Origin: an uncultured Christensenella sp.
GTDB taxonomy: Bacteria > Bacillota > Clostridia > Christensenellales > DTU072
DNA: 59,236 bases
Assembly (NCBI GenBank): GCA_964368435.1
Contig: CAYJBS010000002.1
Coordinates: 1 to 59,236, forward strand
Reading direction: 5' to 3'
The notes under the pieces were generated by a model. It did no database searches. It worked only from the letters and a program-made list of their open reading frames with translations, and had not been told where the DNA came from. Positions 754 through 50,141 of the stretch are shown in pieces (within the stretch, counting starts at the first letter, position 1; each line of letters opens with the position of its first letter). The position numbers and the translations under genes are program-made.

Positions 754-3700
754 CTATGGAGCAGGTTTCTCGGGCGTCTTGACTCTTTCTCCTTCCTTGA
801 AGGGATGCTCTCTCGCAGGTTTGTTGCCCTTGGGAATGTTTTGTATTCCCTTCTTGTAAAGCGACTTTTTGTGCGATCTGTTGTAGTTGTTTAGGAAACT
901 TCTTCTCCTGATACCGGTGAATGTGATGACTACGATGAGCACTACAAATACACCTATTGTGGCGAAAGTGATATAGTTGAGCAGCTTTGTGTCTATCGTT
1001 ATGCCGGCAAATGTGCCGTAAACATCGGTTTCAGTCTCTCTGACAGCTATATTGGCTTTGGTGGCAAGCACATAAGTATCAAGGTTGTTGGCGCTGAATA
1101 CTACACTCTTGCCATCGCCCTGAATCTCCACACCGCTTATTTCGGTGATAGTGCCGTCAGGAGACAATCTGTAAACTGCGAAACGGACATAGTTGTAATA
1201 TTCTTCCGGAATGGGCAGTGTAACAAGAATCTCTCCTGTTGAGGTTTGAGAAGCTGCGCCTGTCAAGCTGACTCTGTTTATGCTGACAACCGTTTTGGGT
1301 TTTTCGGCGACGATTGTATTCAAAATTGTAGCCTGAGCATTGTCGTACAACTCGACTGTATTTGGATAAGAAGTAACTTCTATTCTTGCGCCCGGCGCTA
1401 GGTTACCTTCGATTTTGATACCCGAATCGACATCTTGGAGCAACATATTCTCGCATTTGCGTTTCAGCGTCGTCAATTTGTTGTATAGCGTTGTGGCATA
1501 AACTGATTTTTGGTCCGGGGACAGATCAAGATATGCGTCATACACTTGTAACACGTTGTTATAATCCGTCACCTTGACAACATTTATGGCAGGGAGTTTT
1601 TTGGTGTTGTTTTCGACCAAAGTCACCCTTGCCATCTCCTTGGCAAGTATGGCGTGCTCCTCTGTCAACTTCTGAAAATAGGCATAATACTCGCCTTCGA
1701 CTATTGCTTCTTGAATCCATTGATTGCCATAGTACGCATAGTCGCGATACGCCTTCAAATAATCGTCCATCTCCCGATAGTCCGACTTCAACTCATAGCT
1801 GGCTTTTTGGCTGAGTCCGGCAATATAGGATTGGAAGCCCGCAATCTCCTGGCGCAAGGTGTTCTCCCTGTCACGCAGACGTATTATGAGATTTTCGAAA
1901 TACGCTCTTCTGGAGTCGTCAATACCCTTTGCCGCAGCAAGATCTTCTTCATATCTGTCTACGGTGTCAAGGTCTTTTTGGCTCAAGGTCAAGTTGTTTA
2001 TGTCGAGAAGGAAGGGAATCATATAGAATTCGAGTTCTGCTCTGTTGCCTGCCAAATCCTCGATGATGATTTTTACGTAACCCTTCGAATCTTCGCTGTT
2101 ATCAACGGAGTTGGTGGCAATTATGTGCCCTTGCGACAACGGGAAACCTATGGTTTCGTCGCGCCGTACAATGTATTGCGCGGTTTTTAGGTTTTCTTCG
2201 CGGAAGGTTATGGGCTGATCAATATAATAGGTGTTCGGCGTATCTGTGACGCTGGGAACAATGATTCCCGATTCGATTTGCGGCGGCACGGTATCTATGT
2301 TTATTTCGAATATTCTTTGATAAATAAGTCCCGACTCCGTCCTGGCAACAACACGCAACGTTTCGCTTCTTGTGCTGGTTACCATGCCATAGCTTGTGCC
2401 CGTCACAGCGTCCATAGGCCATTGGTTCTCGAGGCTGGAGCCGTCGCGGTAATATACTATTCTGACATTTGATTTGTTGGCTACGGCGTTGGTTCTTTCT
2501 ATGCTTACGCGAACCTCTTCTTGGTTGGTCCATTCTCCGGAATTTATTAGTTTTATTTGGTCCGAATCCTCTGCAATCTTGACCTCGCCGTTGAGCTTGA
2601 ATTCGGGAATAACTTTATCTACTTTTATGCGGATGGCTTGGGTATACTTCTTGCCGTTGGCAGGGCATATAGCTTGTACAACAAGGATAGCATCATTATT
2701 TTTGCCGAAATTGTCCATTCTGTCGGTTGTGAAAGTAATGGCGTCGCCAATGACAATATTCGAAGGAGTCCTCGTATATTGTGTCTCGCCATCTGCTGAT
2801 TTGACGAGATACTGATAGTTTACGGTGCTGGGGTTACGGAGAGCCGGATCTATTCTGATGACAATGGTCACCGAAGAGCTTGCCCACTGTCCGCTGGTAT
2901 CTGCCAAAGTCAAACCGTGAAGACTGCCGCCTACGTCGATAGAGCCGAAGTTGCCGCCGTTGTATATATTGCCGCCAACATAGGTTTCAAGTGTAAAGTC
3001 AGGTCTTCTGGTGTCAATTTGCACAACTGCCGGCTTTTCGTGTACAACTTCCGAACCGGCTTGATTGGTCAATTTGAAAAACATTGTTTTCTTGATGTCT
3101 TGGTTGAAACGGAAGGTCATGTTGTTTTCCGTTGAAGGCTCTTGATTGTACTTTATCCAGGTCTGTCTGTTATCTATAGAATACCAATAATAAACGCCTG
3201 TATGAGAATTCGTGCTGAACTCAATATTTATTTCTTCTGTCCAAGTAAAAGTGAAAATATTATATTCCTCACCGTCAATGGTCGTTTGGGTATTTGAACC
3301 CTCGCCCTCGGGAAAGTTTATTATGAATGACGGCTCAAACGAGTCAACTAAGAAGGTATACTTGTCTCCTGTGTGACTGCTTATGTTATCCAGCGTATTT
3401 CTGGCGAACAAATAGTAAGCAATGCCGACGGCAGCCTCGCCTTCGACGATTTGTACAGGCTCGCCCGATTTCATCAACTGCCACCCGTTCAATTCCGTCG
3501 GAGTGGGCAGATCGCTCGGGATTGAGATCTCTTCCGTCACTTGGAAATAATAATACTGTATCGGCGCTCTGTCGGTAAATTCAGGATTGCGCAGTGTTAT
3601 GGTCTCATTGTTATAGACAAAGAAGTCTTCTATCTCTCCGTTCAACTGGCTTATCATATCCTCAACATCGGGAGTGCTGTTGTCTATTTTGATTTCGTTG

Positions 3701-6700
3701 CTGTAGAACGGCACAGGATTGGAACTGTATTTTGCTGCGTTGAAAGCAATGACAATTATGTTGCCGGTATAGAAGCACTTGTTGGTAGTGCTTGTAGGGT
3801 CGGAAAATCTCGGCGCGCTATTTTCGTCGACGCCCCAGAAGTCGAAAGCGCCGTTGATCAATGATACCGGAATGGCGTATTCGTAAATATCGGATTTTTG
3901 GTTGAGTTCTGTCAAACTGTGCTCGGCATAAAATTCAACAGGTGTCTTGTCGTGAAGGATTATGATGCCATATGTATAGTCGGCATAGGACTCGCCTGCG
4001 GGCAGATTTATGAGTATGCTCAAAGGTCCTTCTATCCAGCCGGTTGAGGTGTCTTTGTTGTAGCCCGGAGCCTGCGGTTGTATGGCGGCGGTTATGTTTA
4101 TGGACGAGCAGTTGAAGGGGATTTTTATGGTGTAAGGACTTGTCGTTTTTTTCTGCCCTTCAAAGCTTATGGCATAACTTTCGAGATAAAATTCTACGAT
4201 TTTTTCGCCAACGGCATTTGCTTCGATTTCCACAAGTAAGTTGTTTCCCGTGCCCTTTGTGTACGCTCCGGCGCTGTCTATTCTGTACCAGAAATTGAAG
4301 TGACCGTCATGATTGCTTTTGAAGGTCAATTCTACATCTTTGCAGACCGGCTGCGTGGTGGCTGTGAACTGCGGGTTCTCGGCATCGTAAACCAGAAGGT
4401 CTTCCTCATTGCGATTGTCACGGACAGCACTCAAAAGAATATCTCTCTTATCTATGCGCGCATCAAAATATACAAAGCTCTGCAAATCCGAACCGCTGGT
4501 CAATCGGAACATAAACGTTCTGGTGAAGATGTTGCCCTGTCCCTCGGGTATTTCTACCAGAAATTTGAATTTTCCAAGCGGAAGACCGTCGCTATCCAGC
4601 AACGACTGCAGCACTCTTTCGGGAATGTTGCTGTCAACCATAAGCTCGCATTCAATGCCCGACAGGCTGATATCTGCCACGGTCTTGGAATCCAGTGTCA
4701 GTTCTATGTTGCCGTTCGCCCAAGCTCCGCTGATTATTGGCACCAACGATTGTTGCACGAAAGCCGTAATATCGACATTGGGTGTAGCCAAGTCAAGTCT
4801 TATTTCCGGGGTGTTGACTTCGTTCTTGCTCTTGACCTGCGCTGCGTTGTAGGCATAAAGTTTGAAGTACCTTCTTTCTACAGAGTCGGAAAGGTAAAGG
4901 CGGAATTTTGCCATTCCCGGAGCCAAATATTTGGGGTCATCCTCATCAAGGTCGGCATAATCGGCGGAGACATCCATGATGATGTCATCTCCGTCGCCAC
5001 TGCCGTCGGCAGCCCAAACGAAAGTCCTTTCGAAATTCTCGTAACCTGTGCCGGAAATGCCGTAAGCAAAGGTATATTTGTCCATAATGGGAGCGTTTAT
5101 GTATACGGGAATAGGCGCATTCGCCCAACCCTTTTCGTTTTCTATTTTTGATACCAAATCGAGGCTTACGGAGAAATCGCTGTAAAGGATGCTGCCTGTA
5201 AACGTCTTTTCGTCATAAAGTCCCGAACGCGACTCCAACCTGAAGGTATATATCCTCTTGTTCACGGGAACAGGAGTGAATATCGCATCGGTAAAAGTAT
5301 AATATTTATAGTTTTGGGCGTCAGTGTTGTCTGCCATATTGGCATATTCCGTTTCGCGCAATACGCCTTCGCTATCGAAATAAGTATACTTGTATGTACA
5401 TGTCAAATCCGATTCGTTGAAAATCAACATGCCCTCGGGCGTTCTGTTGTAGACAACGAAGCCGAGGCTGTCGCTGGCATATCCTACGCGGTAATCCGGA
5501 CCTGCCGCCTCGCCAAAAGAGCGAATGTCGGTGTTTAGTTTGTCTTTTGCGGTGATGGAAACAACAGGCTGTTGCTTGTCGATGAAAGCGTCATATCTTC
5601 CGCTGGATGCCGACTCTTTGTTGGCGTCGCTTATGGCGCGGAAGTTTATGTTCTGGGTGGTCTTATTGAGGGGCAAGGTATAGAATTCCGTTCCGCTGCC
5701 GGCATTCTTTGCCAGCGCAGTCCAATCACTGACTCCTATTATTTTGTATTCGTAACGAACAGGCGATTGACCTTTCTCGGTGGGAGTGATTATGTAGGTG
5801 ATATCGTTGTAGCTCCATTGATAATTTTTGGAGTTATAATCATATATTTCGTTTTCGCCGTTTGCATTTGTTTTGGTAGATTGCGCTCTGATTTCGATTT
5901 CGGGACGCACGATATCCATTCTGGCATGTATGGATTTTCCGGTTATGGGATTGGTGGTGCGATAGCCTTTTTTTACGCCGCTTTGGTCAGTCACCCTGAA
6001 ATGCACGGGACCGTTCAAGTTTTCTATGATAAAGCACATGTTGGGAGAAGTGCCGTTGGCGGGGTGCCATTGTTTTTGCGGGCTGTTCATATCAAGAATG
6101 CCGTCAATGGAATAATCATACTTTTTGTTGGGTGTATCACCTTGACTGACTATGTCGAATCGCAATTGTGTCGATACCCAAATGTTGCCGGCTGCTCCCA
6201 GTTCGGCGACATACGGCTTCCAAGTGGTGCCTGAATAATAATATGAAACGACATCTTGTATTTCGATGTCGGTAGGATCTATTGAGGGATTATAAATTAT
6301 GTTAAAGATACCGGTATTTATGTATTCTTCGGTTATGGGTTGTCCGGTACCGGTGGTCGTTTCGGCAAAAGCGCGAAACTTTATGAAACGATTGTAGGGT
6401 TCGGGTAGCGGAAAAGTCCACAGCATATAGTCCACACCGTCGGACTGAATGATTTGCATCTTGTCAGCCTTCAAGAATTCGTTTTCTTCGCCCTCCCAAT
6501 TCGTGCCGGCAAGAACATCGGAATAGCTGAGTCCCGAAACATAGCTGAATTGAGTAATGCTGGGGTTTTTGTTCGGGCTGGTCAATAAAAATCTAAAAGA
6601 AATAAATTCGTAGGACTCGCCGCCAAGATAAGGCGTCCATGCCCCTGTGTCAATATCGTATACGCCCGCCTCAACGGTGAATGCCAAATCGGCAGTTGCG

Positions 6701-6816
6701 GCTAGCGCCGGATTCTCTTCGTTCCCAACAGACATTGTGACGGACAGCGCAAAAGCTATCAAGCAAAAAATAGCAAGAATCGGTATTATAATAGCCTTTC
6801 TTAGTTTAGAATTCAT
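754..6816 (-). CDS. 2,020-aa type-I membrane-anchored surface protein with multiple Ig-like beta-sandwich repeats and a membrane-proximal helical stalk
   Basis: 6,063-nt ORF with a GAGG RBS 7 nt upstream of the ATG. N-terminal signal sequence MNSKLRKAIIIPILAIFCLIAFALSV. Eight domain-boundary motifs of the form D-x-x-x-P (MDIVRPEI, IDKQQPVV, LDLATPNV, IDNSTPDV, VDSFEPSF, IDTRRPDF, VDKVIPEF, IDTVPPQI), typical of bacterial Ig-like repeats. One C-terminal TM helix followed by a basic 51-aa tail. Confidence 0.93.
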   Translation of the reverse strand: MNSKLRKAIIIPILAIFCLIAFALSVTMSVGNEENPALAATADLAFTVEAGVYDIDTGAWTPYLGGESYEFISFRFLLTSPNKNPSITQFSYVSGLSYSDVLAGTNWEGEENEFLKADKMQIIQSDGVDYMLWTFPLPEPYNRFIKFRAFAETTTGTGQPITEEYINTGIFNIIYNPSIDPTDIEIQDVVSYYYSGTTWKPYVAELGAAGNIWVSTQLRFDIVSQGDTPNKKYDYSIDGILDMNSPQKQWHPANGTSPNMCFIIENLNGPVHFRVTDQSGVKKGYRTTNPITGKSIHARMDIVRPEIEIRAQSTKTNANGENEIYDYNSKNYQWSYNDITYIITPTEKGQSPVRYEYKIIGVSDWTALAKNAGSGTEFYTLPLNKTTQNINFRAISDANKESASSGRYDAFIDKQQPVVSITAKDKLNTDIRSFGEAAGPDYRVGYASDSLGFVVYNRTPEGMLIFNESDLTCTYKYTYFDSEGVLRETEYANMADNTDAQNYKYYTFTDAIFTPVPVNKRIYTFRLESRSGLYDEKTFTGSILYSDFSVSLDLVSKIENEKGWANAPIPVYINAPIMDKYTFAYGISGTGYENFERTFVWAADGSGDGDDIIMDVSADYADLDEDDPKYLAPGMAKFRLYLSDSVERRYFKLYAYNAAQVKSKNEVNTPEIRLDLATPNVDITAFVQQSLVPIISGAWANGNIELTLDSKTVADISLSGIECELMVDSNIPERVLQSLLDSDGLPLGKFKFLVEIPEGQGNIFTRTFMFRLTSGSDLQSFVYFDARIDKRDILLSAVRDNRNEEDLLVYDAENPQFTATTQPVCKDVELTFKSNHDGHFNFWYRIDSAGAYTKGTGNNLLVEIEANAVGEKIVEFYLESYAISFEGQKKTTSPYTIKIPFNCSSINITAAIQPQAPGYNKDTSTGWIEGPLSILINLPAGESYADYTYGIIILHDKTPVEFYAEHSLTELNQKSDIYEYAIPVSLINGAFDFWGVDENSAPRFSDPTSTTNKCFYTGNIIVIAFNAAKYSSNPVPFYSNEIKIDNSTPDVEDMISQLNGEIEDFFVYNNETITLRNPEFTDRAPIQYYYFQVTEEISIPSDLPTPTELNGWQLMKSGEPVQIVEGEAAVGIAYYLFARNTLDNISSHTGDKYTFLVDSFEPSFIINFPEGEGSNTQTTIDGEEYNIFTFTWTEEINIEFSTNSHTGVYYWYSIDNRQTWIKYNQEPSTENNMTFRFNQDIKKTMFFKLTNQAGSEVVHEKPAVVQIDTRRPDFTLETYVGGNIYNGGNFGSIDVGGSLHGLTLADTSGQWASSSVTIVIRIDPALRNPSTVNYQYLVKSADGETQYTRTPSNIVIGDAITFTTDRMDNFGKNNDAILVVQAICPANGKKYTQAIRIKVDKVIPEFKLNGEVKIAEDSDQIKLINSGEWTNQEEVRVSIERTNAVANKSNVRIVYYRDGSSLENQWPMDAVTGTSYGMVTSTRSETLRVVARTESGLIYQRIFEINIDTVPPQIESGIIVPSVTDTPNTYYIDQPITFREENLKTAQYIVRRDETIGFPLSQGHIIATNSVDNSEDSKGYVKIIIEDLAGNRAELEFYMIPFLLDINNLTLSQKDLDTVDRYEEDLAAAKGIDDSRRAYFENLIIRLRDRENTLRQEIAGFQSYIAGLSQKASYELKSDYREMDDYLKAYRDYAYYGNQWIQEAIVEGEYYAYFQKLTEEHAILAKEMARVTLVENNTKKLPAINVVKVTDYNNVLQVYDAYLDLSPDQKSVYATTLYNKLTTLKRKCENMLLQDVDSGIKIEGNLAPGARIEVTSYPNTVELYDNAQATILNTIVAEKPKTVVSINRVSLTGAASQTSTGEILVTLPIPEEYYNYVRFAVYRLSPDGTITEISGVEIQGDGKSVVFSANNLDTYVLATKANIAVRETETDVYGTFAGITIDTKLLNYITFATIGVFVVLIVVITFTGIRRRSFLNNYNRSHKKSLYKKGIQNIPKGNKPAREHPFKEGERVKTPEKPAP
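910..972 (-). other. C-terminal transmembrane anchor of the 2,020-aa protein (residues 1949-1969)
   Basis: ITFATIGVFVVLIVVITFTGI followed by RRRSF and a Lys/Arg-rich 51-aa tail (positive-inside rule). Codons checked in the DNA: RRR = 901-909. Confidence 0.8.
1438..2013 (-). other. ~190-aa helical, coiled-coil-like stalk of the 2,020-aa protein (residues ~1602-1793)
   Basis: Charged and Tyr-rich sequence with few Pro/Gly (DRYEEDLAAAKGIDDSRRAYFENLIIRLRDRENTLRQEIAGFQSYIAGL ... LYNKLTTLKRKCENMLL), lying between the Ig-like region and the last beta domain plus TM anchor. Confidence 0.45.
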
Positions 6817-7111: not shown

Positions 7112-7627
7112 TTATTCGTCGTCGGAATCGTCATCGTCATCGTCTGCGTCATCGTCCTCGTCTGCCGCATCGTCATCATCTTCCGCATCAAGCGCATACT
7201 CGAAATCTTCTACATCTTCGGACAAAGACTCCTCTTCAGCCTCGTTGTAGCTCTCCTCGTCATCCCATTCCTCTGTTTCAGCAAGCTCTTCGAGAGATAT
7301 CGGCACCTCTTCTATTTCTTCATCTTCGATGACCTCTTCGCTGTCGTCGTCTTCATCGATCTTCGACCATTCATCCGGCTCGATATCGTCAATAATCTTC
7401 TTCTTGACCTTTTCCGCTGCTATTTCCATCAAGCAGTTCTCGCAGAACCGCTCTCCGTCTCCAATAAAGTTTATGCGGCATCTGGGACAAATCTCGCTGT
7501 CGTCATCAATATCATCTTCTTCCTCGCGCAGTTTGCCTGCAATCTCAAACTGACAAATCTCACAATATTCCGTATCGTTGAGAATGTAGTTTATTTCACA
7601 TCTGGGACACAGCTTATATTTGGGCAT
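7112..7627 (-). CDS. Double zinc-ribbon protein with an extreme poly-acidic C-terminal tail (171 aa)
   Basis: AGGAGG RBS immediately upstream. Two CPRC-x11-C-x2-C motifs (CPRCEINYILNDTEYCEIC and CPRCRINFIGDGERFCENC). 20 of the last 28 residues are Asp/Glu (…DAEDDDDAADEDDDADDDDDDSDDE). Confidence 0.8.
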   Translation of the reverse strand: MPKYKLCPRCEINYILNDTEYCEICQFEIAGKLREEEDDIDDDSEICPRCRINFIGDGERFCENCLMEIAAEKVKKKIIDDIEPDEWSKIDEDDDSEEVIEDEEIEEVPISLEELAETEEWDDEESYNEAEEESLSEDVEDFEYALDAEDDDDAADEDDDADDDDDDSDDE

Positions 7628-7894: not shown

Positions 7895-9331
7895 TTATAG
7901 CGCGCTTATTCTGTCGGCGTCGGTCATCTTGCCCAGCAGAGTATCCTTCTGGGTTTCTGCGTCTCTTGCCTCGACTGCGTCAAGGTCCAAATAAAAAATG
8001 TTGTTGGTTATGGAGCTTTTGAAGAAATACAGCGTACCGTCAATGATTTCTGCACCTATCCATTGGGAGCTGAAAGCGCCGCTGTAGTACATCTCTGCGT
8101 TGCCCTCTACCTTGACCAAAGCGCCGTCTGTGACATCAAACAGCTTTATGTTATAGAGTTTGTCGCCCGATGTATAGTACATATAGTATGATGTGCCGGC
8201 ATCCTCGCTGACTAAATAAAAATCATAAGGAACCACAGTGGCGGAGAAGGTTATGGCGTTGTATTGGTATTCTCCGGCAAGGGTGTAGACATCGAGCTTC
8301 GAAACCGCCGTATCCGACGCATTGGTAGCCGCGCCAAATGCCAATACTTTGCCTTGCGCAAAATAAAAGTTCTTGTACTCAAAACCCTTCGTCGTCGTCG
8401 GGTTGCTGGTGAAACGAACAAGATTTGCGGTATTGAAGTTCAATCCTGCATCGTAAGTATACGAATACAGTCCTGCAGCAGGCTGATTTGTGCGACTGTC
8501 GGTGATGCTATAAAAAACCGTCAACTTGTCACCGTTATATTTTATTTCGATAATAGTCGGAGTAAGAGCGGCGTTTGAGCCTAGCATATCGGTGCTTATG
8601 ATGGCGGCATTCTTGTCGCCGTTTATTGCCATAGCGTATATGGTCTTCTTCGAGGTCTCTGCATCTGTCTTGGAATAAAAAACATAGTTGTCCATCGCGT
8701 TGGCATCGGCGGTGGGCTTTGTGAAGAAATACGCCGTGTCGACACCCTCGACTATGGTCTCTTCCTTGAACTTCTTGTTCGATAGGTCTATGCGGCATAT
8801 ATTCTGCTCAAATATGTAGACGAGTTTTTGTCCGGATATTTTGTAGGGTACCGAATGGTTCTTGAATTCGGCTACAACCTGAGTGCCGGTGCCGTCAACC
8901 TTTGTGCGCATGATGACCATTTCTGCCGTCTTGGCATTGCCTTCGCTGTCCTTGTCCACGCTTGTTGTGGAATAATAAATATAGTCATCAAAGATATAAA
9001 GTCCGCCAAAATTCTTTTCTGTGGAATAAACTTTTTTTGGCACTATCAAAGCAAAAGTATCTTTCAAGGGCTTGCGGTCGGCATTAAGCTCGACACGCGC
9101 TATGGCGCCTTTCAGGGTTTTGCCGAATTCGTTTTCGGCGGCTTCTTCTGCATAGCCGTTTATGAAGTAGAGATACTTGCCGTATGTGACTGCCAAACCG
9201 CCGTTCGAAGTGACGGTTTTGTCAGCATAATCGACAGCAACAGCGTCTTGCTTGAAATTCTCGACACAACCGGTCAATAAAAAAACACCCAAGCATAGGC
9301 ATATAATAATCAAAACAATCTTTTTGCTCAT
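7895..9331 (-). CDS. DUF5050-like (TolB-like beta-propeller) lipoprotein, 478 aa
   Basis: MSKKIVLIIICLCLGVFLLTGC is a signal peptide with an L-T-G-C lipobox. Recurring blade-like motifs: GKYLYFINGY, DDYIYYSTTS, QKLVYIFEQ, DNYVFYSKTD, YYMYYTSGDKLYNI, DGTLYFFKSS. The start at 9331 (GGAG RBS) is preferred over the ORF-track start at 9367, because the predicted -10 box (9368-9373) abuts 9367. Confidence 0.85.
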   Translation of the reverse strand: MSKKIVLIIICLCLGVFLLTGCVENFKQDAVAVDYADKTVTSNGGLAVTYGKYLYFINGYAEEAAENEFGKTLKGAIARVELNADRKPLKDTFALIVPKKVYSTEKNFGGLYIFDDYIYYSTTSVDKDSEGNAKTAEMVIMRTKVDGTGTQVVAEFKNHSVPYKISGQKLVYIFEQNICRIDLSNKKFKEETIVEGVDTAYFFTKPTADANAMDNYVFYSKTDAETSKKTIYAMAINGDKNAAIISTDMLGSNAALTPTIIEIKYNGDKLTVFYSITDSRTNQPAAGLYSYTYDAGLNFNTANLVRFTSNPTTTKGFEYKNFYFAQGKVLAFGAATNASDTAVSKLDVYTLAGEYQYNAITFSATVVPYDFYLVSEDAGTSYYMYYTSGDKLYNIKLFDVTDGALVKVEGNAEMYYSGAFSSQWIGAEIIDGTLYFFKSSITNNIFYLDLDAVEARDAETQKDTLLGKMTDADRISAL

Positions 9332-9367: not shown

Positions 9368-9396
9368 ATTATATAATATTAAATAGTTTATTGCAA
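9368..9396 (-). promoter_or_regulatory. Sigma-A-type promoter of the DUF5050-like lipoprotein gene
   Basis: Minus strand TTGCAA (9391-9396), 17 nt spacer, TATAAT (9368-9373). Confidence 0.5.
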
Positions 9397-13513: not shown

Positions 13514-13570
13514 AGTATATTCAATTCTGTTAAGCTATATCCCGTACTGATTCTATTTATTTTTGCAATG

Positions 13571-13619
13571 AAAAAAGAGGGCTGAACTCATGTCGTTTGA
13601 GTCAAGCCCTGCTTTTTTT
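13571..13619 (-). terminator. Rho-independent terminator of the giant gene
   Basis: AAAAAAG-AGGGCT-GA-ACTCA-TGTCGTT-TGAGT-CA-AGCCCT-GCTTTTTTT. On the minus strand the hairpin starts about 25 nt past the stop at 13644 and is followed by TTTTTT. Confidence 0.6.
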
Positions 13620-13643
13620 GCTTTTATGGAATATGATTATTAT

Positions 13644-41583: not shown

Positions 41584-41608
41584 AAAAAGGGCATAGTACG
41601 CCCTTTTC
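41584..41608 (-). terminator. Terminator-like hairpin in the 5' leader of the giant gene; it could also terminate the upstream PIG-L operon
   Basis: Minus strand GAAAAGGGC-GTACTAT-GCCCTTTTTC. It has the same A-tract / short GC stem / T-tract design as the terminators at 645-669 and 59206-59231. It lies downstream of the predicted promoter (41627-41655) and 50 nt upstream of the ATG. Confidence 0.5.
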
Positions 41609-41626: not shown

Positions 41627-41655
41627 ATTATACTCACGAGCTTTTTTAATGTCAA
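41627..41655 (-). promoter_or_regulatory. Perfect-consensus sigma-A promoter upstream of the giant gene
   Basis: Minus strand TTGACA (41650-41655), exactly 17 nt (TTAAAAAAGCTCGTGAG), TATAAT (41627-41632). Predicted TSS near 41620. Confidence 0.6.
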
Positions 41656-41793: not shown

Positions 41794-42594
41794 TCACAGC
41801 AACAATTGGTTCTTGAAACCTTCTATTTTGTCCTCAACGAACTGTCGAAGTGTGGTGTTTTTGTCGGACAAAAGCGGTAATAAATCGATACCGAAGCTGA
41901 CCAGCTCCGCAGTATTGACTGCATGAGAACGGCTGAAAGTGGCATTGGCAAGCCGTCTTCCTTGAATCGCCAAATCGTATCTCTTGCCGCCTTTTACTTG
42001 CGACTTATGGACGGCTATCAAACGGCGCAACAGTCGTTTGTATCCCGAAAGGTCAAACAGCGCCTTGTCCTCGTCGTTCAGCCAGTCGAGATCTCGCCAA
42101 CATTCGCAACCGAAAAAGCTGCGCGGCTTATAATCCGGAAGCGCGCGCAAAGCGTTCAAGACGCTTTTGGCTACATTGACATGGGTGTTGTGTTTGTCGG
42201 CGGGGTTGTGGGTATATATCGTGTCGGGACAAAACTCCTTGGCGATCTCTTGTATGTCGGCAATCAAACCTTTGTTTTCATCGTTTATTTCGGCGCTGGG
42301 ATAATTTAGAAATATCAGAGTAGCATACCGCCCTATTTTTGCGGCGCTTATCTGCTCCTTTCTTCGTTGCTCTACCATCTGTTCGTCGGTGAAATCGGCA
42401 TATTTGCCGTTGCGCGGACTGCCCGAGCCGTTGCTGACAATAACAGCTACAAGCCCTTTTTTTTCGTCGTCATAACATTGCACAATGCCGTCTCCGCACA
42501 TAATCTCGGCATCGTCCTGATGCGCGGCGAAAACCAAATGGGTATAAATGTTTTTTTTGCCTCGAATGACTTCGGCTCTTTTGTTTAGTTGCAT
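41794..42594 (-). CDS. PIG-L family deacetylase (LmbE-like N-acetylglucosaminyl deacetylase)
   Basis: LVFAAHQDDAEI (AHPDDE-type zinc-binding motif) and THNPADKHNTHV (HPDH-type motif). The ATG at 42594 has an AAGAGGA RBS 5 nt upstream. The ORF-track start at 42621 is a GTG that overlaps the upstream gene by 16 nt. No signal peptide. Confidence 0.85.
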   Translation of the reverse strand: MQLNKRAEVIRGKKNIYTHLVFAAHQDDAEIMCGDGIVQCYDDEKKGLVAVIVSNGSGSPRNGKYADFTDEQMVEQRRKEQISAAKIGRYATLIFLNYPSAEINDENKGLIADIQEIAKEFCPDTIYTHNPADKHNTHVNVAKSVLNALRALPDYKPRSFFGCECWRDLDWLNDEDKALFDLSGYKRLLRRLIAVHKSQVKGGKRYDLAIQGRRLANATFSRSHAVNTAELVSFGIDLLPLLSDKNTTLRQFVEDKIEGFKNQLLL

Positions 42595-42605
42595 TTTTCC
42601 TCTTA

Positions 42606-43448
42606 TTATTCCAGTTTCCACATTTCCGTCATTTCTATGCTACCGCCGCGCGCAACGGTACGAATAGGCGACAGACTTTCTATTTCGTGTATGCGATCGG
42701 AAACATAGCTTTCAAAGTTGCAATGAAAGTCGGGATACTCGCCGTCCTTGTCTCCAAAAAATTGCTTTGTGAACATTTGGGAGCCTATGGTGTAGACTGC
42801 TCTTATTTCCTCTTTATAGAGTCCCACTTTCAGCGGTTTGGAAACCTTTTCTGTGCTTTTAAGGACAAGCTTGTTGTTGAACAATTCCAGTCTTTCGTCT
42901 TTGATATCGGAATAATGCCAAAGCGCAAGATTGCGGTTTGCAAGGTATCCGGTGTCTTTTTCTTCAAGATAAAGTTCCATCTTTCCGCCGGACTTCAGCA
43001 CCGTCAAGCCCCAAAGACACAGCCTTTTTTCTTCGCCGTTGTTGACAAATTTATGTGTAACTTCAAGAGTTTTTTCACCTGTAAAAACTATTTTTATAGA
43101 AGGAACAAGATGGCTTTCTTTGCGTTCTTCGGTCGACAATATGACTCCGCCATCTATCTTTTCGACGGTTATTTCGTCATTGTCGGGATAATAAGTGCTT
43201 TCGTCTTCGGGCGACAGCCAAAGGCGGTGACCGCCGAAGATATGCCACTTTTTGCCCTCTCCGTATACGGCGGAAACGTCTTTCGAAACGGCGTCTTCAA
43301 TGTCATTATAAAAAATATTGGCGCCGCCTACCTTGTTCAGCGCGATTATTCTCGGTCCGACTTTCAACGGTATGGTGAACTCGATAAAGCCGTTGCTTAC
43401 CTTCAAAGCGTCGCCAAGAAAGCATTGTGTGTTGCTATATTCAATCAT
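42606..43448 (-). CDS. DUF4380-like / aldose-1-epimerase-like beta-sandwich protein (cytoplasmic)
   Basis: 280-aa all-beta-looking protein with FGGHRLWLSPE, which I recall as characteristic of DUF4380 (from memory, not searched). Its ATG overlaps the stop of the upstream gene as ATGA (43445-43448). Confidence 0.7.
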   Translation of the reverse strand: MIEYSNTQCFLGDALKVSNGFIEFTIPLKVGPRIIALNKVGGANIFYNDIEDAVSKDVSAVYGEGKKWHIFGGHRLWLSPEDESTYYPDNDEITVEKIDGGVILSTEERKESHLVPSIKIVFTGEKTLEVTHKFVNNGEEKRLCLWGLTVLKSGGKMELYLEEKDTGYLANRNLALWHYSDIKDERLELFNNKLVLKSTEKVSKPLKVGLYKEEIRAVYTIGSQMFTKQFFGDKDGEYPDFHCNFESYVSDRIHEIESLSPIRTVARGGSIEMTEMWKLE

Positions 43449-46400
43449 AAAGTCCCTCTTATTATTATATATTGTACTATATCGCCCTTGACAATAACAT
43501 TGCTCCCATGACGTTTCGTTTCCACATGTTCTTTTAGTGTGCCGGAGTAGTCATAATAAGCAATGACAAACTCCTCATAAACATGACCACTCGACGGAAT
43601 TTGATCAATGAATGTGTCGAATTCCGCTTCCGTTTCAAAATACAAATCTATCGTTTCGTCATCGTCATCGTTATCGTAGTCAAAGAAATAATATGAGCGT
43701 TCCGACGCAACTACCGGCGCCTCGCCGTCAAAAGTATGGGACGACTGCATATCTTCGTCTGCCGCCAAAAAGTAATAATGGTTTGAGGCTATGATAATAT
43801 CTTGAGTTCCGGTGACTTTTGAATGCAATCTGCCCCAAGTGGCGTCCACATAGTACCAGGCGCCCTCAAGCATGATTGCGTTCCAGGCGTGGTTGACATC
43901 TCCTTTGCCGTTGTTGTTGTTTCCCGCGCCGCTAAGACGAATGACTGTCAGATCCTCTATGGCGCAAAGCAGCGTAAACGCCTTGCTGATGCCGTCACAA
44001 ACGGCTATCTTATTAAGTATTGCGCCTTCGAGATGGAAACTTTGTTTTCGGCTCATATCAAGGTTTATGGTGTCTATCTGCTCTTTTGTAGTTGCTTCAG
44101 CCATCCGTTGCATATAACTGTTATAAACCTCCTCGTCATATGCGACGTTTATGCAAAGCCAGTCGTATATCGCCAGCGCTTTTTCGGAATCGCTCATTTC
44201 AGGCAATATGATTTCGTTCAAAATGGCTCTTGCTGCTTCATAAATCTCTTCTGCTACGCTGCCGACAACGGGATCAGGCCGGTATCCCCAAAGCGCGGCA
44301 AGATACAGCTGCGCGCTGGTAGAAACAGCAAGCGTTCTGTCGTTTTCTAAAATTGGTTCCTTGCCCGGCACTCTGTCGGTATCCGACAGTGAGTCGGAAT
44401 ATCTCGGCTCATAAAGTCTGCTATCGTTCTCGCCGTTATAAGTCGAGCCTTGATCTATTGCCACTGCCTCATCGGGTTTCAAATTAATTGTGACATCGCC
44501 ACCGGTATGCTCAGAAAAAACCATGCTTGTTCCGGGGCCCTCACCATAAGCATTGTTGGCGGCGGTAATAAGCTTGTGAGCGTTTATCAGAACTTCTTCA
44601 GTTTGACTGCCTTGTGTAATGTTGCCGGTTCTTTCATAAAGTGACTGTTCAATATCAGTCTCGTAGTCGATGGCAAAATATAAATCTATATCATATCCTT
44701 CTTCGTCGTCACCAAGCTCTGTCGGGCGAAAGACTTTTATGTAGTTCAATATCTTGCCCAGTTGATAAACGCTGTTTATGTAACGATTCATGCTTGTTCC
44801 GGGTATTTCTTCGAGGTAAGGATATTGCTCCGGATTTATCTTTTTATTTTTTTCACTTCCATAGGAACGGAAGCCGGTATACAAGTCGGAAATATCGGTT
44901 TTTATGCGGTAGTCAAAATTATCGTTCAGCGTGACATCCGAATGCGGCACACGAAAACGATCTGCCGAAAAATCGGCTGAATGGTCTGTGCTATTATAAG
45001 CAAGCGTTTGGGTACCCTTTTTGATTTCTACGGTGTACGAAACACCTTCTTTCAACTTATGCCAAGTGATGAGCGGCGCGTAATTCGTTCCATCGTAGTA
45101 GCCGTTTACCTTGATATCATAAAGCTCGTGGGTGACATTGTCTTTTATGCTGATGATATGCGACTGCTGCCGTTCGACAGGATCGCCGTTATAGCTCAAA
45201 GTACCGACAATCCTGTAGTCGCCGGCAGCGATAAAGGTGTAAGTATCGCCTGTGTGGAACAGATCTTCTCCGACGGGATGCACCGCCCATATCACTTGCG
45301 TGTTTTGAAGCTGTGTATCATAAGCAAGCTGTACCTCGGCGTTCACCTCGTATTCTTTTTTAAGTCCGACTATATCAAAACAGCTTTGCAGCGTCACCGT
45401 CTTTTTTATTATGATTGGCGTTCCGCTGAGTGTAACCTCGGCTTTTACGGTGTACGCTCCTGCGGTCTGGGGAGGGAGCATTTCAAAAGTGTACTCTGTT
45501 GTTTGACCAACTAATGCATTGTCCTTGTACCACTTGATTGAGTCTACATCTTCCAATTCTGTATCGAGACTGAAAAGTATGTCCTCTGCAGTCTGAATGG
45601 GTTGCGTCAGTGGTTTTGAGTGTGTTATCACCTCTTGTATCATCAAAGGCAAAACGCTTATTTCGATGTCGGCAGAAACCTCGGGATTGCTTTTTGAGCG
45701 CACCGTGACAATCACGGGGGATGTCGTTGCCGCAACAGGCGTCACCAAGCCGTTGTTGCCTATCGTGATAAAAGCCTCTCCGCCTTCTGCGATTTCGTAA
45801 GTGACGCTCTTGTCGGCGGTATTCGTCGGCGCAATGGCGTGCGTAATAACATAATAGTCAGTTTGGTCAAGCAGTAGCGTCACCGCATCGTCGCCCAACG
45901 TCATCGCTACCGCTTGTATCGGCGGAGCCTCAACCTCTACTCTTACGGTCTTGGTAACCGATGAGAGCGCTCCGTCTATTTTGGCGTTAAAACGATACTC
46001 TATATTACCCGACTGCTCCGGCATCTTTATTTTATAAAAAGTTATGCCCTGCTCTAGTTCGATTTTGAAATCATCTTCGCCCAATGCTACATAGCCTTCA
46101 CCGACTTTTATTGCCGCTTCGTAGCTGTCCGCCTTTTGCATGCCGGCGTATTCTATGCATTGAAAGCTTACCCAGTCGCCATATGTATAAGCTCTTTTGC
46201 TCCATATGCCTTCATCGTTTATTCTGTCGACATACCCGACATAAAAATCTGTTAGTGCGTACTTCGGACGGCTGTTATTTATGCGTACATACAAGTTAGC
46301 CACTACTTCGCCGTTGTCGTCGCTGCTGATGTGAATGACATAAGGCTCATGACCGGGGATATAGTTCTTTGCTATAATTACTTTTGTTTCATCTATTTCT

Positions 46401-46933
46401 ATACTAGGATCATTTATCCCCTGATAGCTCAGCCCTTTTTCGGTGGCATTTGCCGGGAAATAAACTATTTCGAGGTCATTCAATGCAAAACTGTTGGCGG
46501 AGGCATCGCCATAATATAAATCTATGACATTGTTCTTTATCAGAATATTTTCTACAGGTATCGGATCGGACACCAAAAAATCAACATTGACGGCATTCGC
46601 CGATTGTTCCATGTTGTCGGTGACTGCTACAACTTTTATGGTGTATGTACCGAATTGCGGAAAGTCCAGCGTAAAGGAATCCTCGGCAGAAATCTCCTTC
46701 TTCCAACGCTCAAAATCGCTATCGTCTGTTTTTTTATAGACATTATAGCCTTGCGGACTGCCCAAGGTCTCAATAATTTGTATAATTACGCTTTCGTTTT
46801 GGTCATAACGCTCTTTCAATGTGTTAATTTGTAATTTGAAGCCTTCAAACCTGTCTCCGTTGCTGCAGGCACTCATAGCTATTGCAAGCAATAAAATAAC
46901 AGATAGAGCTAAAAAAAGTCTGGTTTTCTTCAT
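43445..46933 (-). CDS. Big_2 + transglutaminase-like (Cys-His-Asp) lipoprotein, ~1,162 aa
   Basis: MKKTRLFLALSVILLLAIAMSAC signal peptide with lipobox. The start at 46933 has a GGAG RBS 6 nt upstream; the ORF-track alternative is 46945. Big_2-like segments are present (…VYFPANATEKGLSYQ…). The C-terminal TGase core is AVC983DGISKAFTLLC…NH1019AWNAIMLEGAWYYVD1034ATW. The Cys codon is TGT at 43997-43999. Confidence 0.88.
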   Translation of the reverse strand: MKKTRLFLALSVILLLAIAMSACSNGDRFEGFKLQINTLKERYDQNESVIIQIIETLGSPQGYNVYKKTDDSDFERWKKEISAEDSFTLDFPQFGTYTIKVVAVTDNMEQSANAVNVDFLVSDPIPVENILIKNNVIDLYYGDASANSFALNDLEIVYFPANATEKGLSYQGINDPSIEIDETKVIIAKNYIPGHEPYVIHISSDDNGEVVANLYVRINNSRPKYALTDFYVGYVDRINDEGIWSKRAYTYGDWVSFQCIEYAGMQKADSYEAAIKVGEGYVALGEDDFKIELEQGITFYKIKMPEQSGNIEYRFNAKIDGALSSVTKTVRVEVEAPPIQAVAMTLGDDAVTLLLDQTDYYVITHAIAPTNTADKSVTYEIAEGGEAFITIGNNGLVTPVAATTSPVIVTVRSKSNPEVSADIEISVLPLMIQEVITHSKPLTQPIQTAEDILFSLDTELEDVDSIKWYKDNALVGQTTEYTFEMLPPQTAGAYTVKAEVTLSGTPIIIKKTVTLQSCFDIVGLKKEYEVNAEVQLAYDTQLQNTQVIWAVHPVGEDLFHTGDTYTFIAAGDYRIVGTLSYNGDPVERQQSHIISIKDNVTHELYDIKVNGYYDGTNYAPLITWHKLKEGVSYTVEIKKGTQTLAYNSTDHSADFSADRFRVPHSDVTLNDNFDYRIKTDISDLYTGFRSYGSEKNKKINPEQYPYLEEIPGTSMNRYINSVYQLGKILNYIKVFRPTELGDDEEGYDIDLYFAIDYETDIEQSLYERTGNITQGSQTEEVLINAHKLITAANNAYGEGPGTSMVFSEHTGGDVTINLKPDEAVAIDQGSTYNGENDSRLYEPRYSDSLSDTDRVPGKEPILENDRTLAVSTSAQLYLAALWGYRPDPVVGSVAEEIYEAARAILNEIILPEMSDSEKALAIYDWLCINVAYDEEVYNSYMQRMAEATTKEQIDTINLDMSRKQSFHLEGAILNKIAVCDGISKAFTLLCAIEDLTVIRLSGAGNNNNGKGDVNHAWNAIMLEGAWYYVDATWGRLHSKVTGTQDIIIASNHYYFLAADEDMQSSHTFDGEAPVVASERSYYFFDYDNDDDDETIDLYFETEAEFDTFIDQIPSSGHVYEEFVIAYYDYSGTLKEHVETKRHGSNVIVKGDIVQYIIIRGTL

Positions 46934-46946
46934 AATATTCTCCATG

Positions 46947-49900
46947 TTAACGGGGAGACGACAGTATTACAACAAAATATCTGTCGGTTATTTGTAACAA
47001 CTCTTTGACGGTTGTCCCACTGTCACTCAAGGCGTTTTGCAGCTGATCGATAACAACATCTTTTAGTTCTGCTTGCGTGTCGAACTCTTGCGAAAATTCC
47101 AACCCAAAGGAATAAACCGTCTGCGTCATGCTGTATAGATAAGAACGTGCGGCAAGCTCTATTGCCGCCTCATTTTCGACAAGCGAGGAGCCTTCGATCT
47201 CGAACGTTCCATCGGTTGTTGCGGCAGGATGAATGCCGAAGAACTTATAACCGCAAGCTATCATATATTCGTCGTCGCGGAGGAAATATGCATGATTTAT
47301 GGCGACGCCGTCTATTCTCTCGACTCTGGCAAGAAAACTGTCGACATTGTACCAACTTTCTCCGATAAGAACCTTGTTCCAACTGTGTTCAACATTGTTG
47401 CGTTGTCCCAAAACAGTGTTTACGGTGATGCCTTCCATCCAGCATAACAGACTGAAAGCCTTGCTGACGCCTTGGCTGACTGCGTTTTTGGTCAGTAGCG
47501 CGCCCTCAAGATGATAACCTTCGAAAAGATATAGGTCAGCGGGTTTTGGCGTGGTTTTGCCGTATTGTATCAGCGCCTTGTCACTGCTGATGTGGCTTGC
47601 CAAATAATCGTTTATGGCAAGCACTTTTTCGAAATCAGTCATACCGTCGATTATTATGTCTTTCAAAATAACTGTCGCTTCGTTATAGACTGCCTCGGCA
47701 GGACTGCCTTTGATAGGGACGGCTCTCTTGCCCATGCTAACGGCATGGAAAAGCTGATCGGTGGTCTCGGCATTTATGGTGTTTTTCGTGTTTATGGCGA
47801 AGTCGTCGAATGTTTCGATTCTGCCATTGGCGGCATAGTTCTGTTTAAATTCGTACGGCTGTTTGTTGGTTGGGGGCTGACTGATATAGCCCTCTTCTCT
47901 TATGGTCAGCGTAATGCCGAAGCTGCCGTCTATTTGGGAATAGGAGAAATCCAAAGCAGTAATCTCTGTAAAGCAATAGGCGTTTATGGCGGCAGTAACC
48001 AAATTATAGATATTCAACAAATATTCGTTGTCGTACGGGTTTTCTCCGATGATGGGGAACAAATCTTTGTTTATGTTGCGGTATGCCTGTTTGGTGAAAA
48101 TATCTATCTTGAATGTTGCGTTGCCGTTCTCGGCGCTCTGCAACAAATCTGCCGGCTTGTATGAAGTGATATAGTTCAGCAGTTCGCCCATTTCGTACAT
48201 ATCATTTATGTAGCGATTTATGCTGAAATTCAGATATGGAAGGAAGGCATACTGATTTTGGGTAATTGTCCTTGCGGTGTATGAAACCTTGTCACAATAT
48301 ACTCCGCCTTTTTGTTTTATTCGGACAGAGAAATTCTGTTCAAGCGTAGCCATACTAAGCGGCAGAATGATGCTGTAATCACTAAAGACTATTCCTCTGA
48401 TGTCATACCGCGCCTCTTGGGTGTCAATGATATATATCTGATTTTCGTTGACAACCTCGATGACAAAGCTGTTGACGCCCCCCAGTTGGTTCCATTTTAT
48501 GACAGGTCTATATTCGGTATCTACTTTTGCTCCGTCGATAATAAGATATTCTATGTTGGAATCGCCGACCTTGTCCCAAACGCGGAAAGGAGTGGTATAG
48601 CGCACCATCTCTCTCTTTTCGCCGCTGACCGTTTCATATACGGGCAAGCCTTCCAGCGTAGGCGAACCGCTTATGATATACCAACCCTCGACAGTCGCCT
48701 CATAGTTGAAGGTGTTGTTGTTCGTTGAAGTAAATAAGAAGTTCTCGTCCGTACGGATTTTGTTTATGATGCCGTCCTCAAAATTGTCGGCGCCTGCGAC
48801 AGGATCGTACCTGTGGAGATACCAGTCATAGCTGTCGGGAACCTTCTCTTCTATGCCCGTTTGTGGATAGACCTGCACCCTGTCTCCTATGACATATTTT
48901 ATGACAGAGAACTCAAACTCAATCGATGCGGCTATGGTATCTTGGGTTTTGCCTTTTGCCGTCAAAACAAATGAGCCGTAATCCAAAGGAGTAAATTTTA
49001 GTTTGCCATTATGGACGGCATGAAGCGTATTGGCAACAAAATTGCCGTCGCCGCTCTCTCCCTTCCTTTTCAGATACCAGTCATAGCTGTCGGCGCTGTT
49101 CGCCATCAGCGGCTCAAAAGTCAACTCCTCTCCGAAGATATAGATATTGCCTTCCGGCTCGTTCTTGTGCAGTTCAAAGCCTGTGAACGGCATATATAGC
49201 GATATCGAGGGAGAAGTCAAATAAATAGTATCTTCATTTTTCGGGGTGATTTGTACCGTAATGGTATATGTAGAACGTGTGCTGTCGACGCTGGGCAGAT
49301 ACTCGAATTCCCATTCGCCGTCCTGCTCCTGTACTCTTTTGCCGGCGACAAGCCATTTTATGTCGGGATTGGGGTCACTCAACTTGTCAAGTTGCTGAAT
49401 ACTAAAAGTAATCTTCTCCGGGTTTCCGACAACTTGATCGAACTTCGGCGAAGCGTCGAGAACATCAAGACGATAGTTGCCCTCGGCATAGCCGATTCTC
49501 ACTTGCACTCTGCCTTCAAGTGTTTTGCCGGCAAGCGTGCTGCTCTTTGCGATGATGGTGACAATGCCCGGTTTCAAAACAGACAAAAGCCCCGAAGAGT
49601 TTACGGTGGCTATTTCGAGGTTTTGGGAGGTGTATGTGACATCCCTGCCGTCCTGTCCGTGATATGGTTTGAACACTAAATCCAATTGTACCGGCTCGCT
49701 GGGAAAAGACACTCTCATTTCCGGAGAAGAAAAGTTTATTTCTTCGACTTCGGTATTCTCTATGATTACTGAAATGATGGTGTATGCCTCGGGATTCGTT
49801 GAGCTGAAGATTTTTATTGGGACACTGTCGATATCATCCATAACCTTCTTTGCGACGATAAATCCGCTCTGGTCTACAGAAAAATAATCCAATGCGTCAG

Positions 49901-50141
49901 GAGTGGCATAATATACAAGTTTTTTGTTGGTGGCATTTGCGGGAACCAGCGTCGGAGTAAGTTGATAGGTGCCGGTTGTGCCGTGAGAAGACAAATATAC
50001 TATTGAGTTGGGTACGCGCACGCCGGTGGCTTCGACATAGTTTTCATCGCTGCGAGGGTCGCTTTCAGGTATGCATGAATAAAAAACCGCCATAAGCAGC
50101 AGTGTTACAATGATAATCAACGCCCTTCTTGTGTTTTTCAT
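46947..50141 (-). CDS. Big_2 + transglutaminase-like paralog with Ser replacing the nucleophile Cys, ~1,064 aa
   Basis: MKNTRRALIIIVTLLLMAVFYSC is a signal peptide with a possible, atypical lipobox. The start at 50141 is preferred over 50189. Two clear Big_2 segments (LVPANATNKKLVYYATPD…; DVTYTSQNLEIATVNSSGLLSVLKPGIVTIIA). The core is AVS905QGVSKAFSLLC…EHSWNKVLIGESWYNVDSF. The Ser codon is AGC at 47475-47477. The stop is 1 nt from the ORF-track start of the next gene. Confidence 0.88.
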   Translation of the reverse strand: MKNTRRALIIIVTLLLMAVFYSCIPESDPRSDENYVEATGVRVPNSIVYLSSHGTTGTYQLTPTLVPANATNKKLVYYATPDALDYFSVDQSGFIVAKKVMDDIDSVPIKIFSSTNPEAYTIISVIIENTEVEEINFSSPEMRVSFPSEPVQLDLVFKPYHGQDGRDVTYTSQNLEIATVNSSGLLSVLKPGIVTIIAKSSTLAGKTLEGRVQVRIGYAEGNYRLDVLDASPKFDQVVGNPEKITFSIQQLDKLSDPNPDIKWLVAGKRVQEQDGEWEFEYLPSVDSTRSTYTITVQITPKNEDTIYLTSPSISLYMPFTGFELHKNEPEGNIYIFGEELTFEPLMANSADSYDWYLKRKGESGDGNFVANTLHAVHNGKLKFTPLDYGSFVLTAKGKTQDTIAASIEFEFSVIKYVIGDRVQVYPQTGIEEKVPDSYDWYLHRYDPVAGADNFEDGIINKIRTDENFLFTSTNNNTFNYEATVEGWYIISGSPTLEGLPVYETVSGEKREMVRYTTPFRVWDKVGDSNIEYLIIDGAKVDTEYRPVIKWNQLGGVNSFVIEVVNENQIYIIDTQEARYDIRGIVFSDYSIILPLSMATLEQNFSVRIKQKGGVYCDKVSYTARTITQNQYAFLPYLNFSINRYINDMYEMGELLNYITSYKPADLLQSAENGNATFKIDIFTKQAYRNINKDLFPIIGENPYDNEYLLNIYNLVTAAINAYCFTEITALDFSYSQIDGSFGITLTIREEGYISQPPTNKQPYEFKQNYAANGRIETFDDFAINTKNTINAETTDQLFHAVSMGKRAVPIKGSPAEAVYNEATVILKDIIIDGMTDFEKVLAINDYLASHISSDKALIQYGKTTPKPADLYLFEGYHLEGALLTKNAVSQGVSKAFSLLCWMEGITVNTVLGQRNNVEHSWNKVLIGESWYNVDSFLARVERIDGVAINHAYFLRDDEYMIACGYKFFGIHPAATTDGTFEIEGSSLVENEAAIELAARSYLYSMTQTVYSFGLEFSQEFDTQAELKDVVIDQLQNALSDSGTTVKELLQITDRYFVVILSSPR

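Follow-up and report, generated by a model that had tools for sequence, protein, structure and literature searches.

The DNA window analysed here is the whole of a 59,236-bp contig (CAYJBS010000002.1, C2) from the 1.8-Mb metagenome-assembled genome (MAG) of an uncultured Christensenella species (G000; 147 contigs, 92.7% complete). Its minus strand carries a 49-kb series of genes dominated by five exported proteins, the largest a lipoprotein of 9,296 amino acids (aa), which a preliminary description proposed to be a single locus for a surface mega-structure. Comparison with 36 genomes of the same GTDB family (uncultured Christensenellales) and with 24 other families of the order argues against one functional unit. 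With moderate confidence, we read the block as a genus-level juxtaposition of two old, family-specific surface-gene modules, A and B, on a conserved chromosomal backbone, and not as one assembly locus. The modules lie apart in most genera, module B persists without module A, the two have separate promoters with a terminator between them, and their large exported proteins are clustered at a density near that expected by chance.

Modules A and B separate across the family

Open reading frames (ORFs) between 754 and 50189 were accepted if they had at least 100 aa and fitted the gene model. All credible ORFs lie on the minus strand, as originally described, but they number 12 and not 13; the gaps between the 12 genes were examined and hold no credible extra ORF. 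In the order of transcription, module A comprises:

46947..50141, minus strand: tg1080, lipoprotein (lipobox FYSC) with matches to PF01841 (28.9 bits) and Big_2 (32 bits)
43445..46945, minus strand: tg1166, lipoprotein (MSAC) with Big_2-like domains and a transglutaminase-like (TG-like) core (PF01841, 28.3 bits)
42606..43448, minus strand: unk280, cytoplasmic mutarotase-like protein, TTE1925-family-like (NF052227, 197 bits, below the equivalog cut-off of 550)
41794..42621, minus strand: PIG-L/LmbE-family de-N-acetylase, cytoplasmic (PF02585, 77.7 bits)
13644..41534, minus strand: giant lipoprotein of 9,296 aa (LISC)

Module B comprises:

12425..13513, minus strand: AI-2E family membrane protein (PF01594, 162 bits), first gene of the module
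11292..12341, minus strand: hisC, histidinol-phosphate aminotransferase (TIGR01141, 305 bits, above the equivalog cut-off)
10187..11230, minus strand: unk347, fast-evolving cytoplasmic protein
9436..10209, minus strand: HAD-IIA (NagD-type) phosphatase (PF13344 and PF13242; TIGR01460, 168 bits)
7895..9331, minus strand: lp478, lipoprotein (LTGC)
7112..7627, minus strand: zr171, cytoplasmic double zinc ribbon (two CPRC...CxxC units) with a hyper-acidic tail
754..6816, minus strand: p2020, 2,020-aa type-I membrane protein, main gene of the module

The five exported products (9,296, 2,020, 1,162, 1,064 and 478 aa) add up to some 14,020 aa, encoded by about 42 kb, in agreement with the preliminary description. 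These sizes use promoter-compatible internal starts: 1,162 aa of the 1,166-aa tg1166 ORF, 1,064 of 1,080 for tg1080 (start 50141) and 478 of 490 for lp478, whose likely start is 9331 because a promoter-like site upstream of it ends at 9368. The four predicted lipobox signals were confirmed; orthologues of the giant and TG-like proteins alike keep their lipoboxes, and the genome encodes Lgt. Omp85 was sought in the genome and not found, which together with the presence of Lgt suggests that the envelope is probably a single membrane, on the outer face of which the lipoproteins would sit. The interleaved hisC, HAD phosphatase and AI-2E genes were equally borne out by their TIGR01141, TIGR01460 and PF01594 matches. 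The AI-2E assignment holds, but the added label "YtvI-like" is loose, since that model scores 50 bits against a cut-off of 198.

The large genes proved intact and conserved across about 16 genera. Orthologues of the first 3,000 aa of the giant were found in 35 of the 36 family genomes, in open frames of 6,400-11,640 aa, and in 0/24 other families; the distribution of p2020 is identical (35/36 and 0/24). The TG-like lipoprotein is also present in 35/36 genomes, with weaker relatives in other families. MAG records of the relatives are titled uncultured Christensenellales and Clostridia, with digesters, rumen and human gut as sources. A search for tRNA genes, Rfam elements and bordering repeats at the block found none, GC content rises only mildly, inside the giant gene, with no strong break, and the genes occupy the same chromosomal site across genera. 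The block thus has none of the usual marks of a genomic island, such as mobility genes, a tRNA or repeats at the borders, a deviant composition or a patchy distribution, and genes that are real, intact, old and narrowly distributed support the earlier view of a resident locus.

Gene order was compared in the flanks of more than 20 relatives. Module A has the order mrnC-rlmB-sigH (divergent), TG-like lipoprotein, unk280, PIG-L in most cases, and giant, and is kept in genera g1, g5, g8, g9 and g15 and in loci L048, L049, L055 and L057. Within it unk280 invariably follows the TG-like gene, in some relatives with a ROK-family gene inserted 3′ of unk280, and PIG-L lies between unk280 and the giant in most genera and is missing in L048/L049. 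Module B has the order AI-2E, unk347, HAD-IIA, lp478, zr171, p2020 and is kept in g1, g5, g11, g14, g15 and g16; hisC, a housekeeping gene, lies within it in the present genus only. The modules adjoin in g1 and g8 only, and elsewhere occupy separate contigs or, in G024, positions 82 kb apart on one contig. In g8 the giant, lp478, zr171 and p2020 follow one another in that order without intervening genes.

Two genomes provide natural losses of module A. In G027 (97% complete, 20 contigs), rlmB-sigH lie on a 103-kb contig with glycogen genes at the module A site; the giant and unk280 were sought genome-wide and not found, and p2020 (2,105 aa) and lp478 are intact. G028 (79% complete) is likewise without a giant or unk280, has a transporter and other genes after mrnC, and keeps p2020 and lp478. 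Sister genomes of both carry module A. These losses indicate that module A is dispensable and that module B is independent of it.

Two further candidate events were rejected. A TAA taken as a disruption of p2020 in G027 is the gene's own stop, and the ORF is intact. In G003 (same genus as G000, 97% complete) the giant, p2020, the TG-like genes and unk280 are all missing; since the genome also lacks the rlmB orthologue, the entire region of about 60 kb is probably unassembled or unbinned, or else deleted, and the case is not an informative co-loss.

Predicted promoters and a terminator divide the block

The following transcription signals were identified around module A:

50171..50199, minus strand: TG operon promoter, sigma-A-type TTGACA-17-TATTAT, 11/12 match
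41627..41655, minus strand: giant promoter, TTGACA-17-TATAAT, perfect sigma-70/sigma-A consensus, 12/12
13565..13621, minus strand: intrinsic terminator 3′ of the giant, hairpin of -24.7 kcal/mol (z = -6.05) followed by UUUUUU

The two promoters recur in relatives. ATTGACA-17/18-TATAAT or TAAAAT lies 90-145 nt before the giant start in 11/11 orthologous loci, including a relocated copy in G032, and boxes like those at 50171-50199 precede the TG gene in 7 of 9 loci. In module B, p2020 has a conserved extended -10 (TGnTATTAT), and 11/12 matches precede zr171 (7706-7678) and hisC (12388-12359, with a TG). Module A is insulated from module B by the predicted terminator at 13565..13621. Within the TG operon the ORFs abut or overlap (a 1-nt gap between tg1080 and tg1166, a 4-nt overlap of tg1166 with unk280 and a 16-nt overlap of the unk280 end with the PIG-L start), so that the TG-like proteins are probably co-translated with the cytoplasmic sugar enzymes; the overlap of the HAD-IIA start with the unk347 end similarly suggests translational coupling. 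Promoters, terminator and gene spacing together predict, at the level of consensus matches, at least five transcription units and a monocistronic giant. The type of promoter at the giant, TG and p2020 genes suggests that these are expressed during vegetative growth.

A further hairpin (AAAGGG-loop-CCCTTT plus a T-run) lies in the 5′ untranslated region (UTR) of the giant, just downstream of its promoter (window 41584-41606, minus strand). It is present in most orthologous loci, with other stem sequences at the equivalent place in L055 and L057, and shows almost no covariation, with weak formal support (3 pairs). A role as 5′ stabiliser or as attenuator for the 28-kb mRNA is conceivable.

Clustering of large exported proteins is close to chance

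ORFs of at least 1,000 aa occupy 19.4% of the 1.8-Mb genome, and about 35-40 of them have signal or lipobox N-termini as judged by eye; others among the large ORFs reach 6,378, 4,430, 4,021, 3,957, 3,812 and 3,373 aa. About one large exported protein is therefore expected per 49 kb, and the block has four, or three if the tandem TG pair is counted as one. By our arithmetic the Poisson probability is about 0.03-0.09 per 49-kb stretch, and the genome contains about 36 such stretches. A single 28-kb gene accounts for most of the block's high exported share. In a genome so rich in giant exported proteins, three or four in 49 kb is near chance expectation and the clustering is not surprising.

The giant lipoprotein and the TG-like enzymes of module A

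Up to aa ~5,250 the giant consists of about 13 divergent beta-rich modules alternating with helical arrays; two Flg_new repeats (aa ~5,255-5,395) and ~3,900 aa of beta-rich sequence follow. The repetition is cryptic: a self-BLAST revealed no internal repeats, and profile hidden Markov models (HMMs) recovered about 13 weak copies of the core unit between aa 100 and 5,250. A Pfam scan of the protein matched Flg_new only and no RTX family. The last 3,000 aa are kept family-wide, at a similar 30-37% identity. Searched against 1.84 billion cluster representatives, the N-terminal profile found 75 relatives, mostly fragments, where a word-based search with the giant found only 2. A literature search on Christensenellales giant lipoproteins and on TTE1925 returned nothing relevant.

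The best local Foldseek matches to a model of aa 1-1100 were LprG (probability 0.94-0.97), S. aureus SAOUHSC_02783 and LolA-like proteins, at a TM score of ~0.31 and an rmsd of ~12 A; a LolA/LprG-like fold of the giant's module is no more than a lead from this model. Separately, the membrane-proximal N-terminal domain (aa ~75-250, window ~40785-41310) is common to otherwise unrelated giant lipoproteins: its carriers include ORFs of 3,340-7,544 aa among the cluster representatives, ORFs of ~3,630 aa in G001 and G003, and an ORF on contig 71 of the present genome (G000:C71:6749-7042).

Both tg1166 and tg1080 score above the 23-bit cut-off of PF01841 (Transglut_core), and tg1166 also matches PDB entry 9crn (1e-8). 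The Cys-His-Asp triad (AVCDG / HAWN / VDATW) is kept in tg1166 and in every single-copy orthologue. At the first of these motifs tg1080 reads AVSQG, a replacement of the catalytic Cys by Ser that is shared by its orthologues in G001 and G005, the latter with His changed to Gln too; tg1080 is thus probably a pseudo-enzyme. By position, tg1080 is the orthologue of the family's single TG-like lipoprotein, and in a phylogenetic tree its clade groups with the positional orthologues of L048/L049 (support 100/99), with tg1166 placed as a long-branched, fast-evolving duplicate specific to this genus. Triad and tree together suggest that in this genus the ancestral copy is now a pseudo-enzyme and that catalysis has passed to the duplicate. 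The TG operon contains no transporter or glycoside hydrolase.

Genus g14 encodes, directly downstream of p2020, a further TG-like lipoprotein that keeps the triad and has 880 aa in G018 (L035, G018:C6, 3108-5750; also G032:C30:316-1080). TG-like ORFs of ~810-940 aa occur in most other genera, and none in the present genome. Derivation of tg1166 from the ~900-aa paralogue near p2020 in g14 was considered and is not supported by the tree.

The p2020 rod and its companions in module B

From its N-terminus, p2020 has a signal-like segment, a tandem Ig-like beta-sandwich rod, a helical bundle (aa ~1613-1792), a beta domain, a transmembrane (TM) helix (aa ~1943-1989) and a basic cytosolic tail. Pfam and NCBIfam profile searches with p2020, lp478 and unk347 gave no family match even at E = 10, and sequence and profile searches of the PDB with these three and unk280 gave none. 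The 41 homologues of p2020, each about 2,000 aa, are all annotated "hypothetical". An AF2 model of aa 1000-2020, built on this 41-sequence alignment, reached a pLDDT of 82, with about six beta-sandwich domains in aa 1000-1600 followed by the helical bundle, one further beta domain, the TM helix and the tail. Foldseek matched it to tandem Ig/MG arrays (E. coli alpha-2-macroglobulin, contactins, the GhpA grappling hook, SiiE and Sap). The C-terminal half is thus well modelled, as a membrane-anchored rod of tandem Ig-like domains.

The cytosolic tail of p2020 (~50-55 aa) is conserved, has a net charge of +8 to +15 and is without an LPXTG motif. Its charge is complementary to that of the tail of the neighbouring zr171, which is ~56% Asp/Glu (47-65%, with net charges of -45 to -80, across the tails examined). 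By manual tally zr171 adjoins p2020 in 12 of 15 loci, with an orientation that flips in place between genomes; its match to PF12773 (E=0.001) is below the cut-off. On the same tally lp478 adjoins p2020 in 10/15 loci. The preliminary description called lp478 "DUF5050-like": lp478 of the window itself does not match DUF5050, but one of 12 orthologues does (2.6e-7), and the protein is probably a DUF5050-like beta-propeller. HAD-IIA adjoins lp478 in the six genera that keep the module B order, positional orthologues of unk347 have 329-347 aa, and the AI-2E gene is on the opposite strand in some relatives.

Several neighbouring genes were recorded as well. A ~255-aa gene (MS.RTKAFVNFYAAIGTL...) follows p2020 in L034, L037, L038, L043 and L014, from several genera, and in 4/5 of these loci a 418-aa gene lies 3′ of it; L014 ends before that point. 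Convergent to p2020 is a gene for a DUF6530 protein (window 57-560, plus strand; E = 1.7e-82), which is 93% identical in G001, far above the conservation of its neighbours. At the other end of the window, abutting genes (55941-57918, minus strand) encode a DUF6320 membrane protein of 227 aa and an acyltransferase-like protein of 430 aa (AATase/PapA_C-like), and the DUF6320 gene stays near sigH in several genera.

Discussion

The likeliest picture is one of two independent vegetative surface systems. In module A, a membrane-tethered TG-like enzyme with a Cys-His-Asp triad would be made from the same operon as a set of cytoplasmic amino-sugar enzymes (mutarotase-like, PIG-L and, in some relatives, ROK), and a separate, monocistronic and strongly promoted gene would supply the lipid-anchored giant, which may form, on the surface of vegetative cells, a fibre or sheath component of great length. 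The TG-like lipoprotein could act on the giant at the membrane face, by cleavage and release or by cross-linking, by analogy with LapG acting on LapA. In module B, the Ig-like rod of p2020 would be held in the membrane by its C-terminal helix, with its basic cytosolic tail possibly contacting the acidic zr171, and the beta-propeller-like lipoprotein lp478 and the HAD phosphatase/unk347 pair appear to travel with it.

Several observations weigh against this picture or temper it. The structure model of giant aa 1-1100, from 12 sequences, has a pLDDT of 60 and a pTM of 0.37. In G018, G032 and G035 the giant lies away from TG-unk280, both being retained and TG-unk280 remaining beside mrnC. Loss of TG, unk280 and the giant together may have been a single deletion of neighbours, so that joint loss is only modest evidence that they work together. 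Gene order in the family is well kept beyond the modules, and conserved order alone is no proof of function. Finally, the enzymes match Transglut_core (PF01841) and not the LapG/BTLCP family: a Pfam scan of tg1166 and tg1080 returned Transglut_core and Big_2 only, with no LapG/BTLCP match.

The proposal that the five exported proteins of the whole block build a single surface mega-structure, such as an appendage, sheath or attachment organ, retains its description of a resident, conserved and intact surface locus, but as a single assembly it is unlikely. All its parts are confined to one family and nearly universal there, the modules are adjacent in g1 and g8, which are not each other's nearest kin, and the lipoprotein downstream of p2020 in g14 means that TG-like enzymes accompany both large proteins. 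Against this stand the separation of the modules in most genera, the persistence of B without A in G027 and G028, the separate transcription units with a terminator between them, and the Poisson estimate for a genome with so many large exported proteins. The further suggestion of a spore-surface structure, an exosporium or spore appendage made in the mother cell, is highly improbable. SpoIVA is present in the genome, which makes the spore-former reading reasonable, the block lies beside sigH, and the AI-2E protein matches the YtvI sporulation model weakly. However, mrnC-rlmB-sigH is an ordinary housekeeping cluster, the products are fixed to the membrane of the producing cell itself by their lipid and TM anchors, and the conserved sigma-A-type promoters of the giant, TG and p2020 genes argue against such a role. 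A spore-surface locus would be expected to have known spore-surface families and mother-cell-type promoters; Pfam and NCBIfam searches with the five exported proteins gave Big_2, Transglut_core and Flg_new only, and no spore-surface family.

Two other explanations concern module A. The TG-like, mutarotase-like, (ROK) and PIG-L genes might serve glycan or amino-sugar foraging, with the TG-like protein an amidase or PNGase-like hydrolase and the giant a mere neighbour. Eukaryotic peptide:N-glycanase has the same transglutaminase-like core, the ORFs overlap or abut, some relatives add the ROK-family gene, and TG-unk280 stays beside mrnC when the giant relocates. Nevertheless, the operon is without a transporter or glycoside hydrolase, TG, unk280 and the giant are jointly missing in G027 and G028, and adjacency to the giant is kept in most genera, all of which leaves foraging doubtful. 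Alternatively, the giant might be an array of LolA/LprG-like open half-barrels that bind lipids or glycolipids or move them along the envelope, and hence a lipid-handling scaffold and not an adhesin or fibre. This too is distinctly unlikely: the LprG, SAOUHSC_02783 and LolA-like matches and the ~13 module repeats seen by HMM favour it, but the model is of low confidence, the TM score is about 0.3 at an rmsd near 12 A, and at the level of sequence the giant matches none of these families. A bolder version of the two-system picture is something of a long shot. Module A would be the single-membrane counterpart of protease-controlled giant-adhesin systems, with a giant in which helical rods separate ~13 lipid-binding half-barrels of the LolA/LprG-like kind; the resulting sheath, hundreds of nanometres in length, would handle lipids or glycolipids and be trimmed or cross-linked by the membrane-tethered TG-like enzyme.

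What is new here is module B and its separability from module A, the two natural losses of module A, the conserved promoters, the terminator, and the Cys-to-Ser paralogue. About a fifth of this 1.8-Mb genome is spent on proteins of at least 1,000 aa, mostly exported and almost none assignable to a family. Genes that travel together offer a guide to joint expression or deletion: the TG-like enzyme with the giant, and the zinc-ribbon protein with the lipoprotein and the Ig-like rod. Modules A and B do not travel together, and joint function should not be assumed; more generally, co-directional clusters of giant genes in such genomes should not be taken for single machines.

Comparison with known systems

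Gram-positive fibrillar adhesins such as Ebh and SasG, a class reportedly defined by Monzon et al., are very long surface proteins with tandem beta-sandwich stalks, and the modelled half of p2020 is such a stalk. In contrast to them, p2020 and the giant are without an LPXTG/sortase anchor, p2020 ending in a TM helix and tail and the giant being lipid-anchored; the giant lacks the regular repetition of a single known domain, and the conservation of both its ends leaves no variable tip. Pfam and NCBIfam scans of the block proteins for adhesive-domain families gave no match and no recognisable adhesive tip.

The LolA/LolB/LprG/LppX half-barrel lipid binders may resemble the giant's beta-rich module, going by weak local fold matches of a low-confidence model. 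They are single domains of ~200 aa, whereas the giant would have ~13 tandem copies, with no sequence similarity to them.

Gut Clostridia encode proteins of ~10,000 aa and more with Listeria-Bacteroides (Flg_new) repeats, which have been read as binding proteins and consist mostly of known repeat domains (RCC1, Flg_new, YG, dockerin) (West-Roberts et al., bioRxiv 10.1101/2023.11.21.568195). In the giant described here, by comparison, 9,296 aa include no more than two Flg_new units; Christensenellales and lipoproteins are not mentioned in that report.

The Lap system of Pseudomonas fluorescens (LapA and LapG) shares with module A a giant cell-tethered protein encoded beside a papain/transglutaminase-fold Cys-His-Asp enzyme on the same membrane face. 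LapA is a type-I-secreted RTX protein plugged in an outer-membrane pore, whereas the giant, from a Firmicute that probably has a single membrane, is a lipoprotein; its lipobox is conserved and it has neither an RTX match nor Omp85 in its genome, unlike a type-I-secreted RTX adhesin. For a LapD-like c-di-GMP receptor, the block proteins gave no GGDEF, EAL or HAMP match; the rest of the genome was not searched. Module A perhaps works like LapA/LapG, as an analogue and not as a member of that system.

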